Assembly (NCBI GenBank): GCA_944381175.1
Contig: CALWKD010000004.1
Location: 76,939-140,938, forward strand
Source of the DNA: an uncultured Clostridia bacterium
Lineage (GTDB): Bacteria; Bacillota; Clostridia; Christensenellales; UBA1242
Length of the DNA stretch: 64,000 bases
Direction of reading: 5' to 3'
In this document: positions 18,062-55,988 of the stretch, piece by piece
Position numbering within the stretch: position 1 is the first letter of the stretch
Layout of the letters: every line of letters starts with the position of its first letter
The notes under the pieces: generated by a model
The model's input: the letters and a program-made list of their open reading frames with translations, nothing else
Database searches by the model: none
What the model was told of the DNA's origin: nothing
Program-made: the position numbers and the translations under genes

Positions 18062-18151
18062 TGGCGCAGAGAAGGAGATTCGAACTCCTGGTGCGATTTC
18101 TCGCACACAGCCTTTCCAGGGCTGCACCTTAAACCACTCGGACATCTCTGC
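18062..18151 (-). tRNA. tRNA-Ser (anticodon GGA), type II, CCA encoded
   Basis: Hand-folded. Acceptor GCAGAGA/TCTCTGC. Anticodon arm CAGCC-CTGGAAA-GGCTG. Long variable arm GTGCGA-GAAA-TCGCAC. T-arm AGGAG-TTCGAAT-CTCCT. Discriminator G + CCA. Confidence 0.9.
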
Positions 18152-18568
18152 ATTTGTCGCAAACTGCATTTAGATTTGGTTTGAATTTAAAATTATTTGC
18201 CACCAAAAACCAATAAGAGCGGTTTAAGGTGCATTTGGGGTCCCCAAAAATTTTTAATTTTAGGGGAGAAGAGAGAAACAAGCGTTAGGGCGAAACTTTC
18301 AAACCTTTGAAAGTGAGCAAAAAGCGAAGTTTCGAACGCAAACCACTCGGACATCTCTGCATTTGTCGCAAACTGCATTAGATTGGGTTTGAATTTAAAA
18401 TTATTTGCCACCAAAAACCAATAAGAGTGGTTTAAGGTGCATTTGGGGTTCCCAAAAATTTTTAATTTTAGGGGAGAAGAGAGAAACAAGCGTTAGGGCG
18501 AAACTTTCAAACCTTTGAAAGTGAGCAAAAAGCGAAGTTTCGAACGCAAACCACTCGGACATCTCTGC
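18131..18568 (-). repeat. Tandem 209/208-bp repeat: three copies of tRNA-Ser nt 1-21 separated by two ~188-nt inserts (X)
   Basis: The 21-mer aaaccactcggacatctctgc occurs at 18131-18151, 18340-18360 and 18548-18568. X copies at 18152-18339 and 18361-18547 differ by only a few substitutions/indels. Confidence 0.95.
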
Positions 18569-18576
18569 ATAGGTTT

Positions 18577-18672
18577 GGGAAGCACCAACTCCGTTTAACG
18601 CGGGCACGATTTACGAAATGTAAATCTAACCGCTACTGCGTTGGTTCTCCTCCAAGTCTCTCTCCATTAAGG
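18577..18672 (-). other. Structured module homologous to the P12 arm of the RNase P RNA in this window
   Basis: Minus strand reads CCTTAATGGAGAGAG...GCGGTTAG-hairpin-CCGCGTTAAACGGAGTTGGTGCTTCCC. The 27-nt 3' block matches rnpB 39968-39994 with one compensated mismatch. Confidence 0.7.
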
Positions 18673-18868
18673 TGAGATGACTCAAAGGTTTTTCATAACG
18701 CGCCGCGCAAATTGAAGTTTGCTCATCGCAAGCGCTCGGGGAGCGTTTGTTTGCTCCGCCTCACGACCAAGCGAAAATCTCGAATACCCTCGATTTTGTC
18801 GTGACTTGAAGTTGTATTTTTTTATATTTCCTCCAAGTCTCTCTCCATTAAGGTGAGATGAATCAAAG
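18649..18868. repeat. 39-nt direct repeat pair (18649-18687 and 18830-18868)
   Basis: cctccaagtctctctccattaaggtgagatga[c/a]tcaaag occurs twice, 181 bp apart. The first copy is the 5' part of the P12-like module (minus sense). Confidence 0.9.
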
Positions 18869-19042
18869 TTTTTTTCGTTATGTTCACTTCCAAAGCATAT
18901 TAAAGATACCACAAATGAAAAAGTTTTGCAAGCGATTTTTAGTTTAAACCTTTTCAGTTTTTAGACAATAGTATATTTTGTTGACACAATCTCCTTTTGT
19001 GTGCTATTATACCTACAAATGAGGAAAAATGGAGACAAAAGT

Positions 19043-37988: not shown

Positions 37989-39350
37989 ATGGACAAGTTG
38001 GAGTTTTATGATATCGTTGGAAAACTTATTGTGCCACTTTTTACTGGTTCTTATTTGGCGGGCGAAATGGAGTCCTCACCAAGAGATTTGGAGGTTGCAC
38101 TTGGGAAAGGAAATTCCGTTCTTCTGAAGCCAACAAAACTTGATGACTACAGAATTGTTCTCAAGCGTGGGCAAGCGTTTAAATCTTTTGAGGTCAACAT
38201 TATTCGCTCAATTATCAAAGTTTTGAATGACATATCCGAGCTTGGCATAACGGACAAAATGTATTTGTCAAAGTTGCAAAGTATTGCCATCGAAAGAGCA
38301 CTTATTGAAAGTCTTACCGACGCGGGAAGTGAGACGATTTTGGGGATTATTGGAGAACTTGAAAAGTGGTCCACAAGGACATATGAGGGGCAGAGTGTCT
38401 CGCTTGGAATTTTGGTGAATTTGGCAAGTGTTGCAGACCAGCACAATCCTGTTTATTATCACAATGTTTTGGATAGTGACTTTTTTGCTCTCTTCACTGA
38501 TGCAGTCAATTCCTTTGTGGAATTTGATAAAGACGGAAAGATGATGGGATATGTTTCGCTTAAAAATCCCAAAAAGGTGGCAACGGTTTCGCCTTATATT
38601 TACGAAAAAGTTGCCAGAATTTGCAACGACAAAAGAATTGGAATTTGCTTGACAAAAAATGAAGATATATTGATTTTCTATTCAAGGCAACTCGTCTTTG
38701 CAAAAAGAAATGGGAGTTGGTGTGTTTATTGCCACGATGAGATCATCAGGCTTTTGCAAAACAATGTCTCCTCGGCGGCAAAACAAATCAGGCGTGCGAT
38801 TTACAACACCGCTCTCGATTGTTCTTTCTCATACAAAGGGGCTTGCATCGCTTACATCGACAAAGACAAGACGCTTGAGGCACTTTCGCACATTGATGTG
38901 GCGGACATAATTTCAGAAGAGTATTTCAACAAGAAAAAAGAACTCGAACTGGAGGAGGCTGGAAAACTTTACAATCTCGGAAATGCGAAGTTTATTATTG
39001 ACAAGTTCAGTTTGAGTTATGAAGAATTTTTGGATAAATACAAGTATGCAAAAACTATGGCTATCAGACGCATTGTCGCAGGGAAAAAACTCTTTGAACT
39101 TGACCGAAAACTTGTCGAGGAAATGACTGCTATTGACGGAGCGACAATCGTTGATTATGAGGGAACAATCATCGCGGTGGGTGCGATTATCAAGATTGAG
39201 GCAGGAAGTGACGGCGGTGGGCGTCTCGCTGCAGCAAAGACAATGGCAAAATACGGTGTTGCAATCAAAGTGTCGCAAGACGGAATTATGCAAGGCTTCA
39301 CATTCGACAAAAAGACAAACACGGTGAAACAGATTTTTTATGTAGGGTAG
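37989..39350 (+). CDS. Divergent DisA_N/DAC-fold domain protein with large uncharacterised N-terminal region (453 aa)
   Basis: C-terminal AIDGATIVDYEGTIIAVGAIIKIE....GGGRLAAAKTMAKYGVAIKVSQDGIMQGF aligns by eye to the diadenylate cyclase core (HDGAVII...GTRHRAA...VVSEETG). DGA is kept and RHR is lost. TTGACA-18-TATTAT promoter at 37787-37816 gives a leader of about 170 nt. Confidence 0.55.
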   Translation: MDKLEFYDIVGKLIVPLFTGSYLAGEMESSPRDLEVALGKGNSVLLKPTKLDDYRIVLKRGQAFKSFEVNIIRSIIKVLNDISELGITDKMYLSKLQSIAIERALIESLTDAGSETILGIIGELEKWSTRTYEGQSVSLGILVNLASVADQHNPVYYHNVLDSDFFALFTDAVNSFVEFDKDGKMMGYVSLKNPKKVATVSPYIYEKVARICNDKRIGICLTKNEDILIFYSRQLVFAKRNGSWCVYCHDEIIRLLQNNVSSAAKQIRRAIYNTALDCSFSYKGACIAYIDKDKTLEALSHIDVADIISEEYFNKKKELELEEAGKLYNLGNAKFIIDKFSLSYEEFLDKYKYAKTMAIRRIVAGKKLFELDRKLVEEMTAIDGATIVDYEGTIIAVGAIIKIEAGSDGGGRLAAAKTMAKYGVAIKVSQDGIMQGFTFDKKTNTVKQIFYVG

Positions 39351-39402
39351 GCGAAAAAACGGCACTTTAGCGAAAAAACGGCGCTAAAACTCGGCTTGCT
39401 GT

Positions 39403-39573
39403 TCGCAAGCGCTCGGGAGACGCTTGTTTTTTCGCTACTTCGCACCAAACGAAAATTGCACAATTTGTGCAATTTTGTGCGAACTTTCTTTGGTTTTTAT
39501 TTATAAAGACGCATGGCGTCCGACCAAGCGAAAATCTCGCTCGCTTTGCTTCACTGCGATTTTGTCGTGACTT
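39403..39573. repeat. Modular intergenic repeats (module 1 at 39403-39430; bulged-hairpin module 2 at 39441-39486 and 39520-39573), related to 18726-18807
   Basis: tcgcaagcgctcggg.ag.cg.ttgttt is shared with 18726-18752. The motif CGAC-CAAGCG-AAAATC...GATTTT-GTCG-TGACTT is shared with 18762-18807. The variant CGCAC-CAAACG-AAAATTGCACA-ATT-TGTGCAATTTT-GTGCG keeps the architecture with different stem sequence. Confidence 0.8.
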
Positions 39574-39753
39574 AAAGTGGAGACATCGAAATGGTGCTGA
39601 GCAGATGCAAAAAAAATAAATGTAGTTAGGCGAAAATTTGTATGTTTAAAATAGAAAATGAAAAAATGGCGCTTTTGGCTTGGTTTTATATTCTCATATA
39701 TTTAGGAATTTGGAAAATAAAAGGGCACGCGGTGGCATTGTGGGGTTGGAGCG

Positions 39754-39787: not shown

Positions 39788-40200
39788 AAGTCAGACAGCC
39801 AGATGGTCGCTGTGCAGTTGTGATGACTGCAGAGAGGAAAGTCCGAGCATCTAAAGAACAAGGTGCCAGTTAACGGCTGGTGAAGGCGACTTCAAGGATA
39901 GTGCAACAGAAATAGACTGCCCTAATTGGGGAGAGTCAATGAAGTGGCGGTTAGGCTTTGCCTTGTCCGCGTTAAACGGAATTGGTGCTTCCCCAGGGCG
40001 ATGGTGGAAAGGTAGGGTAAGAGCCTACCGAGGCGGTGGCAACATCGCTTGCTCTGTAAACCCCACCTGATGCAAGATTAAGTTTGAGCATATGTGTGTT
40101 CTTTCACGCTCAACAAAAGTATCGCTTGAACTTGTTGGCGACAACAAGTCTGGATAGATGACCATCAAATACAGAACTCGGCTTACAGACTGTCTGACAA
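39788..40200 (+). ncRNA. rnpB: RNase P RNA, bacterial type A, with an enlarged P12 arm
   Basis: P1 GTCAGACAG...CTGTCTGAC. P4 strands GAGGAAAGTCCGAGC and ACAGAACTCGGCTTACAG. GTGCAACAGAAA. P13/14-type GGTAGGGTAAGAGCCTACC. Confidence 0.9.
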
Positions 40201-40226
40201 ACCACTTTATGTGGTTTTTTTATTGC
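40201..40226 (+). terminator. rnpB terminator; first copy of a 26-nt perfect direct repeat
   Basis: ACCAC-TTTAT-GTGGT + T7. The identical 26-mer accactttatgtggtttttttattgc recurs at 40502-40527. Confidence 0.8.
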
Positions 40227-46197: not shown

Positions 46198-47628
46198 ATG
46201 GAAGACAAACTTATAAAAAGATTGCTTAGAATTGAAAAGACCATTGATTTGAGATATAACGCAAACCGCCTGAATTTTTACAACAAAAAAGGAAAGATTC
46301 ACAAAAAACAAATGGCATTTCACAAATGCAAGAAGAGAAACCGCTGGGTCTTTGGCGGAAATCGTTCTGGCAAAACTGAGTGCGGAGCGGTGGAAGTGGT
46401 CTATCTTGCTTGCGGGATTCATCCGTATCGAAAAAACAAGGTGACGGAAGGTTGGGTTGTCAGTCTTTCAAGACAGGTGCAAAGAGATGTCGCACAAAAG
46501 AAGATTTTGCAATATTTGCCCCAATCTTACATTGAGAAAATTGTTATGGTCAGCGGAGGTGCGGACAGTGCCGAAAACGGAATTATTGATTTTATTGTCG
46601 TAAGGTCGGCTGTGGGCGGGCTAAGCAAAATCGGCTTTAAAAGTTGCGACCAGGGCAGAGAGAAGTTTCAAGGGGCTTCACTGGACTATGTTTGGTTTGA
46701 CGAAGAGCCTCCGCAGGACATTTATATGGAATGTAAAATGCGTGTGCTTGACAAATGCGGAGATATTTTTGGCACGATGACGCCACTTAAAGGGCTCACT
46801 TGGGTCTACAACACCATCTACCTAAACGATAAGCAGGACAGTGAGGTTTGGTTTGAGATGATGGAGTGGGCGGACAACCCATTTCTGTCCAAAAAAGAGA
46901 TTCAAAACTTGACCAAGACTTTGCCCGCTGACGAACTGGAAAGCAGGCGTTATGGCAAGTTTATGCAAAACGGTGGGCTTGTCTACAGCGAGTTTGACGA
47001 AAATGAGAATGTCATTGAGCCGTTCGACATCCCAGAAGATTGGCAGGACGCAATATCTATTGACCCAGGACTTCACAACCCCCTTTCCGCTCATTTTTAT
47101 GCGGTTGATTATGACGGAAATGTCTATGTTGTGGCGGAGCATTATCAGGCGGAGAAGAGTGTGGAGTTTCACGCAAACAAAATCAAGGAGATTGCCGACA
47201 GACTCCATTGGAAGCGTGACAGAAACGGCTTTTTGCGAGCTTTTATTGACTCGGCGGCGAAACAAAAGACTTTGTCCAGCGAGAAAAATGTCGTGGAACT
47301 TTTTTATGAAAATGGAATCCTCGTAAACCCCAATGTCAACAAAGACCTTTTCTCTGGCATCTCTGTCGTCAAGTCTTACATCAAGACTCTTGATGGGAAG
47401 CGAAGACTTTTCATCTTTAAAAATTGCGTAAATTTGATTCGCGAGATAAAGAGTTATTGGTGGGGAGATGACGATGTTCCGATCAAGAAAGATGACCACT
47501 GTCTTGACGAACTTCGATATTATCTTATGACAAAACCGCTCAACAAAGAAAGGGCAGGAAAAAATGAAATTCAAAAGGACAAAGAAAAAATGGCGAGGAG
47601 ACTCAGATTGTCTGGAAACAATTATTAA
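46198..47628 (+). CDS. Phage terminase large subunit (TerL) homologue, apparently intact, without other phage structural genes
   Basis: Walker A GGNRSGKT. Walker B DYVWFDEEP. RNase-H-fold nuclease Asp motifs AISIDPG and KKDDHCLDELRYY. Confidence 0.85.
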   Translation: MEDKLIKRLLRIEKTIDLRYNANRLNFYNKKGKIHKKQMAFHKCKKRNRWVFGGNRSGKTECGAVEVVYLACGIHPYRKNKVTEGWVVSLSRQVQRDVAQKKILQYLPQSYIEKIVMVSGGADSAENGIIDFIVVRSAVGGLSKIGFKSCDQGREKFQGASLDYVWFDEEPPQDIYMECKMRVLDKCGDIFGTMTPLKGLTWVYNTIYLNDKQDSEVWFEMMEWADNPFLSKKEIQNLTKTLPADELESRRYGKFMQNGGLVYSEFDENENVIEPFDIPEDWQDAISIDPGLHNPLSAHFYAVDYDGNVYVVAEHYQAEKSVEFHANKIKEIADRLHWKRDRNGFLRAFIDSAAKQKTLSSEKNVVELFYENGILVNPNVNKDLFSGISVVKSYIKTLDGKRRLFIFKNCVNLIREIKSYWWGDDDVPIKKDDHCLDELRYYLMTKPLNKERAGKNEIQKDKEKMARRLRLSGNNY

Positions 47629-47716
47629 AAGGAATTTTTTGCCAATTTTTGTAAATTTTGCAAATAATTTGTCAATATATTTGGAAAAATAATCTTGAAT
47701 GTGGTAAATTAAGACT

Positions 47717-50116
47717 ATGAGAAAAAGCATCAAAAAGGTTGTGTGTGCGGGCGTTGTTTTTGCTGTCATATCCATCTTTGCTGGTCTTGGTGGATTTTGT
47801 TTTTCTTCGCAAAATGTTGTGGAAGCGGCGACAACTTATGCAAACACCTATGAGATTGGAGACAAAGGAACTCTTCAAAACAGAATAATAAACTATGGAA
47901 ACACGAGTTCCACCTCAAACTTTGTCTTGACGAGCGATATTGATATGAGCGGAATCACGCTCAATTCGACTCTTGGCACGGAGGAATTTCCTTTTCAGGG
48001 GACTTTCGATGGACAGGGGCACACCATATCAAATTTGACGATTGACCTTTCTCAGACGCTTCAGGGCACTCCTGTCACGGCGTCAAACAAATATGCTGGG
48101 CTCTTTGGAATTACGAATGGTGCAACCATAAAAAATGTCGCACTTTCTGGCACAATCACAATCATTTTGGGCGATTGCACAACTGCTTATGTTGGTTCTT
48201 TGGTCGCAAATGCACAAAACACGACCATACAATATGTTCAAAACTCTGCAAGAATGGTCATCAAGCAAAGCCCAAGTGATGTGACACAAACCTCTTTTGA
48301 CAACACTTTGATTCTTGGCGGGCTTGTCGGAATTTCAAATTCTTCAAGCATTTCGTATGTCATAAACAGGCAAACTGACATTGGCTCATTCAGTTTCAAC
48401 GACAACAAAGGAAGAATTTCTTCTATCGGGGGTGTCGTTGGGCAACTTCTGAACAGCAGCCTTGTCTTTGGTGTGTCAAGGGCAAACTTGAATGTGACTG
48501 TTGGGGAAAGTTATGCTGGGACTTTGAATATAGGGGGAGTCTTTGGCTCAGTTTCTGGCTCAAAAGTTTTCCAAAGAGTTGGGGTTGCTGTTGCGGATAT
48601 GATTGTTGAGAACACTCTGAATGTGACAAACAATTCCTCAATCATCAATGCGACGGTCAATGTTGGGCAGGTCGGTGGTGTGATTTCAAGTCCATATCCG
48701 ACGACGCTTGGACTTTCTTCCATTTATTATCGCACAAATTCAACTCATTCCGCTTTTGGAGAGACAAACACCTACACTTTCTCAAATTCAGCGACGCTTG
48801 ACGGAATTATTCATACCGACACGCAGTTTACAAGTGAAGCGGTTGTGAACGATTCCAGCAAAAACTGGCACTCTTCCTTTGGGCTTTGGGATTTTGACAC
48901 GGTTTGGTATTTCAACGGCTCAACTATTTATTTGCAGAGTTTTTATGGCGGTTTTAACATTCAACTTGCCTCCGATTTGCAAAACTCAACTATTTTTGAA
49001 GTTGAGGGAATTTCTGATGAGAACGGTTTGACAAGCACAAGATACAATTATCAATCGCAGGTGACGATTTCTTTCAGATTTAGGGATGGTATGGAAAAAT
49101 ATTACACCATAACTGGACTAAACCAAGGAAGCGTTGAAAACAAAGTGACCATTGACTACAACACCGAAACTGGACAATACACAAACACTTCCGACCCAGA
49201 AAATTATGCCATTTCTGAGGACGGCGGCGTGATTTCCGTCACTATTAAAAGCGTGAACAGGTCGACTGCTGGCACTTATGACATAAATTACAGGGCAAAC
49301 GAGTTCACTGTTGAGGTGACGACAAAATTGTTTGATTCGGAAAATCAACTTGAGGAAGGTGTTGTGCCTGGAGATATTTATTATGCTGGAGGAAACACTG
49401 CGCAAGTGCTTCCAGTCAGTGTTATGATGACTTACAACACCACAAGAACACTTGAGGTTAGACTCAGAAATGCAAACTCACCATACGCACTTCAGGGGTG
49501 GTATCTCGAAGTGGAAGACGGACAAGACAAACTTCTTTCTTCTGGAAGTTCCTTGGCAATAAGTTTTGGTTCAGGCGATTTTACGGACAACTGCAAGATT
49601 TATGCAAGATACCAAGATGACGCGTGTCGAATCAGTTTTGAAATTAAGGGCGACGGAATTTCCGAAATCTATATCGGAGACAACTTGGTGACCGAAAAGG
49701 TTGCGACAGTGCTCAAAACTGCAAGCAGGCTTAAACTTGAGATTTATGTCGAAGAGGGATACACTTTTGATGTCCAACGCTTTTTGGATATGATGGCAAC
49801 ATATCGTGGCGAAGATACCACAACTCCTTTCTGCACTTGGGAGAATGAGGCGAGTGGAGACGACAGATATTATCTTTTCTATCTTGATATGACCACTTTG
49901 AGAGGAGAATTCTCTGAGAGTTTCAGCGTCGAACTTGACACTGAAAAGACCGTCGCAGAGACAAACACTTGGATTTGGTATGTGGTCGGAGGTGTTGGAG
50001 GCGCTGTTGTGCTTGGCGTTGCGATATTCCTGATTGTCTTCTTTGTTAAACGCCGAGGCGGTGGTGGCGGAAATGTCGGAGGATATTCAAGAAAATCTTT
50101 CAGAGGATACTACTAA
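47717..50116 (+). CDS. GLUG-motif repeat surface protein with C-terminal TM anchor and Gly/Arg tail
   Basis: Signal peptide. FQGTFDGQGHTISNL. Repeated GLFG/GGLVG/GGVVG/GGVFG beta-helix-type GLUG units. TM WIWYVVGGVGGAVVLGVAIFLIVFFV + KRRGGGGGN. Confidence 0.7.
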   Translation: MRKSIKKVVCAGVVFAVISIFAGLGGFCFSSQNVVEAATTYANTYEIGDKGTLQNRIINYGNTSSTSNFVLTSDIDMSGITLNSTLGTEEFPFQGTFDGQGHTISNLTIDLSQTLQGTPVTASNKYAGLFGITNGATIKNVALSGTITIILGDCTTAYVGSLVANAQNTTIQYVQNSARMVIKQSPSDVTQTSFDNTLILGGLVGISNSSSISYVINRQTDIGSFSFNDNKGRISSIGGVVGQLLNSSLVFGVSRANLNVTVGESYAGTLNIGGVFGSVSGSKVFQRVGVAVADMIVENTLNVTNNSSIINATVNVGQVGGVISSPYPTTLGLSSIYYRTNSTHSAFGETNTYTFSNSATLDGIIHTDTQFTSEAVVNDSSKNWHSSFGLWDFDTVWYFNGSTIYLQSFYGGFNIQLASDLQNSTIFEVEGISDENGLTSTRYNYQSQVTISFRFRDGMEKYYTITGLNQGSVENKVTIDYNTETGQYTNTSDPENYAISEDGGVISVTIKSVNRSTAGTYDINYRANEFTVEVTTKLFDSENQLEEGVVPGDIYYAGGNTAQVLPVSVMMTYNTTRTLEVRLRNANSPYALQGWYLEVEDGQDKLLSSGSSLAISFGSGDFTDNCKIYARYQDDACRISFEIKGDGISEIYIGDNLVTEKVATVLKTASRLKLEIYVEEGYTFDVQRFLDMMATYRGEDTTTPFCTWENEASGDDRYYLFYLDMTTLRGEFSESFSVELDTEKTVAETNTWIWYVVGGVGGAVVLGVAIFLIVFFVKRRGGGGGNVGGYSRKSFRGYY

Positions 50117-55906: not shown

Positions 55907-55988
55907 TGGTGCGGATGAGAGGGGTCGAACCTCCACGGTTTCCCACTTGCCCCTTAAACAAGCGCGTCTGCCATTCCGCCACATCCGC
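55907..55988 (-). tRNA. tRNA-Leu, type II, apparent anticodon AAG, CCA encoded
   Basis: Hand-folded. Acceptor GCGGATG/CATCCGC. D-stem GCG/CGC. Anticodon arm CTTGT-TTAAGGG-GCAAG (U33, G37). 11-nt variable arm. T-arm GGAGG-TTCGACC-CCTCT. Terminator hairpin at 55868-55904. Confidence 0.8.

Follow-up and report, generated by a model that had tools for sequence, protein, structure and literature searches.

Bacterial transfer RNA (tRNA) genes are usually regarded as constitutively processed. Egan and Landy reportedly described, in 1978, tandem 178-bp repeats downstream of the tyrT tRNA-Tyr gene of Escherichia coli, and the known integrative elements are said, by Williams in 2002, to carry the 3′ part of a tRNA. 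Fragments of tRNA genes are normally explained by the integration of an element (PMC9897764), and a designed leader switch has demonstrated that the structure of a leader can gate RNase P cleavage (PMC7897497). The locus described here lies in a 64,000-nucleotide (nt) stretch of DNA from an uncultured Clostridia bacterium (contig CALWKD010000004.1), referred to throughout as the window, and consists of two tandem copies of a unit, X, in front of the gene for tRNA-Ser(GGA), each bounded by the first 21 nt of that tRNA and each carrying an inverted copy of part of its D-arm.

X is a mosaic, lineage-conserved and copy-number-variable unit of the 5′ flank of tRNA-Ser(GGA). On balance we consider it probable, from sequence comparison, that X is the unit of a tandemly repeated, structured 5′ leader which governs folding and processing of this tRNA, and not a foreign insertion. 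An earlier note, made from the sequence of the window, had proposed either a non-autonomous insertion element specific for the D-loop or, alternatively, an antisense leader.

The array in front of tRNA-Ser(GGA)

Tandem Repeats Finder (TRF) reports a single array at 18131–18570, with a period of 208 nt, 2.1 copies and 98% matches. Its recurring boundary is the 21-mer GCAGAGATGTCCGAGTGGTTT, here called the core, which is identical to nt 1–21 of the tRNA and occurs exactly three times on the minus strand (18131–18151, 18340–18360 and 18548–18568), where shuffled sequences lead one to expect none. Between the cores lie two near-identical bodies, X1 and X2, which differ by three substitutions and one 1-nt indel, and the homology of the core copies to the tRNA ends after nt 21, within the D-loop, where GGTTT is followed by GCG. 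The inverted 17-mer GAGTGGTTTAAGGTGCA, called antiD, is perfect at 18425–18441 and matches at 16 of 17 positions at 18217–18233; by chance none would be expected. The core copies, the two near-identical bodies, the end of homology in the D-loop and the inverted 17-mer had been described in the earlier note and were reproduced here. Its statement that the outermost core is preceded by unrelated sequence needs one adjustment: the sequence upstream is indeed unrelated to X, but the outermost copy shares two further bases (AT), making the outer repeat 23 nt long.

Read in the sense of the tRNA, each unit is composed of the core, a structured module T, a hairpin hp, the bases ACCCC, antiD, a short loop, a D-arm-like segment f and an AT-rich tail, about 45 nt long, that leads up to the tRNA. 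Module T itself runs from a helix P1 through a 15-nt loop, a hairpin P2 and a 17-nt loop to a terminal pyrimidine tract. The parts of the array are as follows, with scores for T taken from a covariance model, R1.

18062–18151, minus strand: intact tRNA-Ser(GGA) gene (ARAGORN; Rfam tRNA, 52.5 bits); nt 1–21 are the third, functional core copy and nt 13–29 the D-arm target of antiD
18152–18339, minus strand: X1, the proximal unit body (TRF, repeat family D1), in tRNA-sense order T, hp, ACCCCAAA, antiD, f and tail
18152–18197, minus strand: AT-rich tail of X1, forming the leader directly 5′ of the tRNA (X2 copy 18361–18405); the native leader at empty sites of relatives is homologous to it
18198–18212, minus strand: f of X1, the D-arm-like partner, TGGTTTTTGGTGGCA, forming an imperfect hairpin with antiD (X2 copy 18406–18420)
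18217–18233, minus strand: antiD of X1, TGCACCTTAAACCGCTC, complementary to tRNA nt 13–29 with one G-U opposite U16
18242–18266, minus strand: hairpin hp of X1, CCCC-UAAAAU..AUUUUU-GGGG (X2 copy 18450–18474), its helix kept with compensatory changes in 13 species
18269–18340, plus strand (the reverse complement of the tRNA-sense strand): module T of X1 (70.6 bits, E=4e-15), with P1 as GAAAC/GTTTC and P2 at 18296–18313
18340–18360, minus strand: core copy 2, an exact 21-mer equal to tRNA nt 1–21, the rest of the tRNA not following
18361–18547, minus strand: X2, the distal unit body (TRF)
18425–18441, minus strand: antiD of X2, TGCACCTTAAACCACTC, complementary to tRNA nt 13–29 at all 17 positions
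18477–18548, plus strand: module T of X2 (70.6 bits), with P2 at 18504–18521
18548–18570, minus strand: outermost core copy 3 with the two shared bases AT, followed upstream by X-unrelated sequence

Two structures named in the earlier note can be placed on this map. The 8-bp hairpin at 18296–18313 is the conserved helix P2, while comparison shows the conserved pairing to be not the supposed G4/C4 palindrome but a different one, in which GGGG at 18242–18245 is joined to CCCC at 18263–18266 through the A/T stem of hp. A candidate terminator on the plus strand within X (TTTGGGGTCCCCAAA followed by a run of T, from a consensus scan) was dropped, its T-run being one arm of hp.

The same note held that X has no open reading frame (ORF) of its own. 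Mechanically called ORFs do cross X, but their frames are not conserved; since the period is not a multiple of three and the frame over antiD differs between species (ATG-CAC-CTT versus TTG-ACC-TTA), X is non-coding. A small ORF over antiD (MHLKP...) was rejected for the same lack of a conserved frame.

Units and structured modules in related genomes

A scan of one genome per species with the 21-mer returned 38 loci, all of them in metagenome-assembled genomes of uncultured gut Clostridia (named as Clostridia or Clostridiales bacterium, Catabacter, Christensenella, Candidatus Caccovivens and Candidatus Scatosoma), and a metagenome scan together with look-ups of MnmA homologues contributed about 35 more; loci and contigs carry the prefix L below. 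The same tRNA type is present in about 26 of the 38, of which nine have a further core, whether exact or decayed, upstream at −193 to −291 and 13 have an inverted D-arm segment 64–79 nt upstream of the tRNA. That X might be a plain native leader, with neither core duplication nor inverted segment, had been allowed for in the earlier note; the relatives show both features, and among them were found both the empty sites and the variation in copy number that it had envisaged, with 0, 1 or 2 units per locus.

Every X-bearing locus has the same junction, in which tRNA nt 16–21 are followed by (G)CG and then by helix P1 of T. Orthologous units with this junction occur in L011, L013, L014, L024, L025, L030, L033, L041, L111, L112, L122–L128 and L134, and its presence in about 15 related species indicates that the unit arose once. 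Whole X units were found only upstream of tRNA-Ser(GGA); elsewhere just T, or its partner module S, occurs.

The number of units, as given by short-read assemblies, is two in the window, in L111 (period 197) and in L123–L125. Loci with an identical MnmA protein (P0171) have one unit in L122, L126 and L127 versus two in L123–L125, and in these contigs the units can be told apart by single-nucleotide polymorphisms and the assembly extends through both flanks. With another identical MnmA (P0179), no unit is present in L132, L133, L135 and L136, and at least one in L134. The empty locus L009 and the one-unit locus L112 have flanks that are 97–99% identical, L112 carrying in addition a 128-nt unique segment (T, hp and antiD) and a 68-nt direct repeat made up of f, tail and core; the empty L029 is related in like manner to L030 (one unit, 55-nt repeat) and to L111. 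The bounding repeat measures 23 nt at the outer end in the window, 55 nt in L030, 68–71 nt in L112 and more than 70 nt in L024 and L134, and in the relatives it comprises native leader together with the start of the tRNA, with a boundary that varies between lineages. From these leader-plus-tRNA repeats of 23–71 nt, and from the occurrence of 0, 1 and 2 units in very close genomes, we infer that units are gained and lost by homologous unequal recombination. X thus behaves as a tandem duplication resolved by homologous recombination, not as a transposon. Although easily deleted, the unit persists across species in which the T regions have diverged to about 73–77% identity.

Two simpler derivations of the unit were considered. 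That antiD belongs to the native leader, as L027 and L046 had suggested, was set aside, the true empty sites L009, L029 and L132 being without antiD; the leaders of L027 and L046 look like collapsed arrays. A derivation of X as trailer plus leader, through deletion of tRNA nt 22–90 from a tandem gene pair, leaves both antiD and the differing post-tRNA sequence unexplained; the occurrence of T right after the full tRNA in L046 lends it partial support, and it is kept as a possible origin only.

The leader of this tRNA is generally unstable, as is seen in a species without X, where L139 has a 167-nt segment with 30-nt direct repeats (CCATTTTTGGGGAAAAGGAGTGACnAAGCG) between mnmA and tRNA-Ser that is absent from L140 and L141 despite an identical MnmA. 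A different element, of about 150 nt, lies 60–300 nt downstream of tRNA-Ser in L022, L024, L025, L033 and L041; it consists of TTGCAAGGATTCGAAC, a long variable hairpin and CCGGCGTGATAGCGG, holds GGATTCGAAC, which is antisense to the T-loop, and is followed by a duplicated 18–21-nt tRNA 3′ end and a terminator. In L022 and L041 it forms tandem units that are a mirror image of X, and it had no match in Rfam. In L106 a core truncated to 16 nt abuts the 3′ end of a convergent gene, beyond which lies an ABC-2 transporter operon, and in L107 just 155 nt of this unrelated sequence remain between core and antiD; L039 and L110 were compared with L106 alongside it. L106 and L107 are 100% identical over 663 nt and then diverge, which points to a rearrangement breakpoint in the D-loop.

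T, hp and S form a low-copy family of structured intergenic modules, as judged from sequence covariation. The covariance model of T recovers every X unit. Across the T family pairing stands at 91% and 11 of 15 pairs show double changes, an outcome equalled by none of 500 shuffles; for P1, P2 and hp in the orthologous X units the corresponding values are 88.5% and 10 pairs, again with none of 500 shuffles as good. The earlier note had named X copies elsewhere that lack the tRNA-derived 21-mer or 17-mer as grounds for giving up its reading; T stands alone and without either at window position 39368–39436, in L027, between two convergent genes with one copy after each, and in L018, directly after mnmA. 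It also directly follows the full tRNA-Ser in L046 and L022, and lies in the opposite orientation directly upstream of the tRNA in L015, L031, L034 and L037. Between L046 and L027, whose flanks are 98% identical, a 205-nt block of T and S with an AT-rich flank, directly after the CCA end of tRNA-Ser, is present in the former and not in the latter, so the module family can be gained or lost as a unit. Two further sites in the window belong to it, scored with R1 for T and a second model, R2, for S.

18756–18810, minus strand: S stem-loop, the partner module of T in the dispersed family (R2, 62.5 bits), in the far-upstream leader region
39368–39576, minus strand: second T/S locus, with T at 39368–39436 (R1, 36.9 bits, E=2e-6) and S at 39433–39489 and 39512–39576 (R2, 58.7 and 57.3 bits)

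The second of these begins 18 nt past the stop of an unannotated 453-aa gene (37989–39350), about 215 nt upstream of the RNase P RNA gene (39791–40201), and contains no tRNA-derived sequence. Because P1 is an A-tract/U-tract helix and most copies sit at the 3′ ends of genes, T and S look like elaborate, orientation-tolerant terminators or 3′-end structures. The TATAAT-like boxes 10–16 nt upstream of S could be a promoter of its own or, equally well, the AT-rich tract that follows a terminator on the other strand. Searched against Rfam at the gathering score and at E≤10, the window gave only tRNA and RNase P RNA, and no family for X, T, S or hp.

Some further candidates in the leader were not retained or stand apart. 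A second T-like module seen by eye at 18690–18755 scored only 8 bits with the covariance model, and a tRNA-like minihelix of core and T (GCAGAGA with UCUCUUC) is restricted to some species, not being conserved in L011, L014 and L112. The far-upstream leader also has a 46-nt direct repeat (18648–18693 and 18829–18874, 96% identical and 181 nt apart), which holds the hairpin TCTCACC-TTAAT-GGAGAGA followed by CTTGGAGGAG; modules like it are found upstream of tRNA-Ser in L037 and L031 as well.

The array as a probable leader

The evidence that X is read as a leader comes in the first place from the position of the promoter. A scan for promoters found one near-consensus extended −10 promoter (TTGnnn-17-TGnTATAAT) per locus, and in all 15 loci it precedes the whole array, being placed at −71 to −115 where the site is empty and at −254 to −484 where it is occupied; in the window the best candidate is the following.

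18903–18931, minus strand: candidate promoter for leader array and tRNA, TTGCAA-17-TGgTATCTT, about 750 nt upstream of the tRNA (−757), a consensus match only

The same kind of scan detected no comparable promoter within X on either strand and no consistent antisense promoters. Since the sole strong promoter lies upstream of the entire array, X is probably transcribed, with the whole array, as part of the leader of the pre-tRNA, which is how the earlier note had supposed the tRNA to be expressed. It would follow that T in this leader cannot be an efficient terminator.

The second line of evidence is antiD itself. In an alignment of 13 orthologous units the sole invariant block within X is ACCTTAAACC(A/G)C. 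The complementarity of antiD covers tRNA nt 15–25 everywhere and reaches to 13–29, 12–26 or 11–26 according to lineage. Where the tRNA of a clade carries C16 (GAGCGGTTT), a G stands at the matching position of each antiD and the core copy has C16 as well, whereas in T16 lineages antiD has A, except that the proximal unit of the window places a G opposite U16 as a G-U pair; two further variants of antiD are also compatible with wobble pairing on the sense RNA. Altogether 12 contiguous pairs between antiD and D-arm are constant and one pair varies, being A-U in 10 species, G-C in two and G-U in one. The sequence of f varies by lineage, yet a hairpin of f with antiD is present in every antiD-bearing locus.

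Folding predictions agree with this picture. In each of the 14 loci that have antiD, the minimum free energy (MFE) structure that RNAfold gives for 95 nt of leader plus the tRNA has 11–17 nt of the D-arm paired to the leader, and it beats a fold in which the cloverleaf is enforced by 2.8–20 kcal/mol, versus 0–3.7 kcal/mol in six empty sites. Able to pair alternatively with f or with the D-arm, antiD is predicted to favour the D-arm by the same 2.8–20 kcal/mol. The fold of core, X and tRNA from the window has an MFE of −98.4 kcal/mol (z = −5.0), and in it the upstream core takes the place of the true 5′ acceptor strand. Conservation, the one compensatory change and the folding energies together suggest that antiD has been selected to pair with nt 11–26, approximately, of the tRNA-Ser RNA. 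The antisense-leader alternative of the earlier note is therefore the one that fared better, given the promoter upstream of the array, an antiD that is both invariant and covarying, and a duplex predicted to dominate.

Complementarity to the D-loop is also seen outside X. The motif TTAAACC, complementary to GGTTTAA of the D-loop, stands at −13 to −6 before tRNA-Ser in most loci, empty sites included, and is not present in the window, and RNAfold pairs 7–14 nt of the D-arm with the leader in five of the six empty sites too. At the window tRNA-Leu(AAG) gene (55907–55988, minus strand) a 9-nt complement of its own D-loop (TGCCATTCC) lies about 310 nt upstream; considered as a similar case, it was rejected, being 9 nt only and borderline against shuffles (p ~0.05).

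The mechanism that we propose would operate in cis. In the nascent transcript antiD would trap the D-arm of the tRNA, and this sequestration would block both the folding of the cloverleaf and processing by RNase P. Alternatively antiD may be masked by f, or occupied by the upstream core acting as a decoy, and the balance of these competing pairings would set the fraction of precursor that is folded and cleaved by RNase P. Each added unit would place a further trap and a further terminator-like T module between promoter and gene, so that unit number would become a heritable dial. In its full form, as a self-contained RNA device with a D-arm trap and two anti-traps (the f arm and the decoy core), this would be the first case in nature in which the folding of a tRNA and its processing by RNase P are controlled by cis-antisense pairing, with unit number (0, 1 or 2) as a recombination-driven dial for the supply of tRNA-Ser(GGA) in gut Clostridia; we advance this fuller version tentatively, as a possibility less probable than its negation. 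We know of no natural leader element that pairs with the body of a tRNA to control folding or access by RNase P, and the literature consulted described no tRNA whose own leader has a conserved segment antisense to the tRNA body, together with decoy and masking arm. If functional, the array would offer a model, open to direct test, of how the supply of a single isoacceptor is tuned, and an instance of tandem repeat dynamics used as a gene-dosage dial with the gene itself unchanged.

Several points weigh against a functional leader. The promoter was assigned only by its match to a consensus. Read in the sense of the tRNA, the helices P1, P2 and hp include 14 A-C mismatches versus 6 G-U pairs, and the family-wide count of mismatches also leans to the other strand, at 7 versus 3; T and hp look optimised for the strand antisense to the tRNA, which sits badly with their acting purely as sense-strand RNA, and no promoter was seen for that strand; many of the sense-strand mismatches in P1, P2 and hp are shared ancestral states. 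The covariation of antiD amounts to one phylogenetic event, and with only one varying position its shuffle control is modest (22 of 500). Folding energies ignore the tertiary contacts and modifications of tRNA and so overstate the competitiveness of antiD. Differences in unit number between short-read assemblies could in part be collapse artefacts, and zero-unit alleles are common, so the unit is dispensable. The same pattern in antiD could be produced, without selection, by concerted evolution driven by recombination or template switching. Finally, the origin of the inverted copy of nt 13–29 next to hp is not explained by this reading; template switching at a tRNA gene transcribed head-on to replication is a guess, prompted by the positive GC skew across the window and the location of the tRNA on the minus strand. 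That skew is positive in each 2-kb bin, making the plus strand the probable leading strand, in which case both tRNA-Ser and tRNA-Leu would be head-on to replication.

Competing explanations and known systems

Neutral origin followed by concerted evolution is the serious rival to a functional leader, although we think it unlikely to be the right account. Here X would be a by-product of instability at a highly transcribed tRNA gene, formed by template switching or partial duplication and propagated by unequal crossing-over, with antiD maintained by quasi-palindrome correction or gene conversion and the whole without function. The frequent gain and loss of units and the existence of zero-unit alleles fit such a view, as do the other repeat-bounded leader indel in a species without X (L139 versus L140 and L141), the fragment-bounded tandem units that occur also 3′ of the tRNA in relatives, the recurrence of breakpoints in the D-loop (nt 16, 17 and 21) and the tracking of the T16/C16 state of the tRNA by the core copy, which recombination predicts. 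It accounts less well for retention of the unit across species in spite of easy deletion, when T has diverged to the extent given above, for pairing in P1, P2 and hp that is kept through compensatory changes among orthologous units, and for an f that changes in sequence and still pairs with antiD. The invariant 12-nt block sits, moreover, within a fast-evolving AT-rich leader, and inverted repeats of 17 nt that are 65–80 nt apart are long-range for quasi-palindrome correction.

That X is instead the scar of a site-specific integrative element, a remnant like a cis-mobilisable element (CIME) or a trans-mobilised satellite that targeted the D-loop of tRNA-Ser and carried its own tRNA 5′ part, we consider improbable. 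The order of flank, fragment, insert and intact tRNA is what such an event would leave, presence and absence are polymorphic between near-identical genomes, the 3′ side shows a mirror arrangement of tRNA, about 150 nt and an 18–21-nt 3′ fragment (L022, L024, L033 and L041), and the truncated 16-nt core of L106 adjoins unrelated genes. Against this, no integrase was found in the window or beside any of about 80 loci (by Pfam for the window and L106/L107, by gene tables for about 40 loci), the insert is just about 128 nt long, the repeat reaches 35–50 nt into the native leader with a lineage-dependent boundary, and it is the 5′ part that is duplicated, versus the 3′ part in known elements. Mobile sequence collections agree: the core 21-mer had no match in viral contigs and X none among INPHARED phages or PLSDB plasmids, and 59 pattern matches to the S motif in viral contigs were set aside as chance, none being accompanied by T.

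The earlier note's own proposal, a non-autonomous mobile element inserting into the D-loop with the antisense segment guiding target recognition in the way of bridge or guide RNAs, is more doubtful still. In its favour antiD reaches across the junction, covering 9 nt to one side of it and 8 nt to the other, it follows the target sequence across lineages, and T has a large conserved internal loop between two helices; a second such loop was not found, and complementarity of the loop strands to the tRNA was not established. The proposal had assumed a 21-nt target duplication, but the repeats of relatives are 55–71 nt long and extend from the leader into the tRNA, unlike a short duplication of fixed length. 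The junction is common by descent and not repeatedly created, and the unit is a mosaic of separable modules without viral, phage or plasmid match, of which T alone is found elsewhere, at gene 3′ ends, while whole X is never away from tRNA-Ser; nor was there an Rfam family to which it could belong. No recombinase or nuclease gene is present in the window or in neighbouring loci. The note had already remarked on the absence of a recombinase from the window, and this holds at the level of Pfam for the 47 of 50 ORFs of at least 110 aa that were scanned; nor was a cognate transposase detected in these 64 kb of the genome.

It is scarcely credible that X is an invertible leader switch like fimS or cwpV, with T and hp turned over between a pair of 9-bp inverted repeats, GAGTGGTTT in the core and AAACCACTC in antiD, to set the gene ON or OFF: inverted repeats do flank a terminator-like segment of about 105 nt between promoter and gene, and T is reversed relative to the tRNA in L015, L031, L034 and L037, but the roughly 45 units seen are all in one orientation, no flipped form (core to nt 29, then hp) occurs among exact-core matches, the loci with reversed T are without the inverted repeats, and no invertase lies nearby. 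Just as slight is the chance that an assembly artefact has expanded a single leader into the array. The metagenome was assembled from short reads, and in other runs short contigs do break off at the repeat, but X1 and X2 differ at four positions, the Logan contig L002, which comes from a different run, has its start exactly at a 30-mer composed of 9 nt of X and the core, the branch node expected of a de Bruijn graph for this repeat, and the two-unit topology was assembled independently in other species, with other assemblers (L111 and L123–L125); the same sequence as the window is found in an ENA contig (L001), probably its source assembly. Integrative scar, guided element, invertible switch and artefact are thus each contradicted by at least one direct test.

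The surroundings of the array are those of a housekeeping chromosome, with about 40% GC and with mutS/mutL, miaA, scpAB, mnmA, fhs, ackA, plsX, rnc, smc, ftsY, valS and the RNase P RNA gene in the window. A lone ORF resembling the large subunit of terminase (Terminase_6N, E=4e-17), followed by a 799-aa ORF without Pfam match (46198–50116, plus strand), stands out in this otherwise housekeeping region, and may be a phage remnant.

A structured and probably transcribed leader of this kind may be set beside several described systems. To the bridge RNA of IS110 the likeness is one of concept only, an RNA segment being complementary to both sides of an insertion point, and it ends with the long leader-containing repeats, the junction common by descent, the lack of dispersed element copies and the lack of a DEDD recombinase; no IS110/IS1111 DEDD gene lies beside X, the flanking genes in the window and at all loci being housekeeping ones (mnmA, tlyA-like, TetR, S51 peptidase). 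Attachment-site (att) fragments in known cases belong to kilobase-scale elements with an integrase and the 3′ part of the tRNA, whereas here there are 128 nt, no integrase, the 5′ part and a repeat that runs into the leader, so that 5′ fragments of tRNA genes should not always be taken for att scars. Arrays such as this one are places where short-read assemblies break or collapse.

T and S recall repeats of the repetitive extragenic palindromic (REP) and enterobacterial repetitive intergenic consensus (ERIC) type, or bidirectional terminators, in their low copy number, covarying stems, occurrence in both orientations mostly right after stops, and A-tract/U-tract helix, but unlike a terminator or a REP sequence T has two conserved internal loops of 15–17 nt and belongs to a family that is not in Rfam. 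Whatever their function, T, S and hp constitute a new family of covarying structured modules.

As in a T-box, a leader RNA would base-pair with a specific tRNA; T-boxes, however, precede mRNAs and bind mature tRNA in trans through its anticodon and NCCA end, while the pairing proposed here is in cis, before the tRNA itself, and with the D-arm, and X had no T-box match in Rfam. The designed RNase P riboswitch shares with the proposed leader the principle that the structure of a pre-tRNA leader decides whether RNase P acts, but it is synthetic, ligand-controlled and masks the leader by the cleavage site (PMC7897497), in contrast to a natural element whose leader is predicted to pair with the D-arm of the tRNA body.

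A further parallel is with the tyrT repeats. There, too, head-to-tail units lie beside a tRNA gene, each with a terminal fragment of that tRNA, and unequal recombination is considered the source of such arrays and of their variation; unit number varies between close genomes here as well (in short-read assemblies). A tyrT-like arrangement on the 3′ side is even found for tRNA-Ser itself in the relatives L022 and L041. Unlike the tyrT units, those of X are on the 5′ side, carry the 5′ fragment, appear to lie inside a transcribed leader, include a conserved antisense copy of the D-arm and encode no peptide, and by analogy the array may be regarded as the 5′-side counterpart of the classic tyrT repeats.

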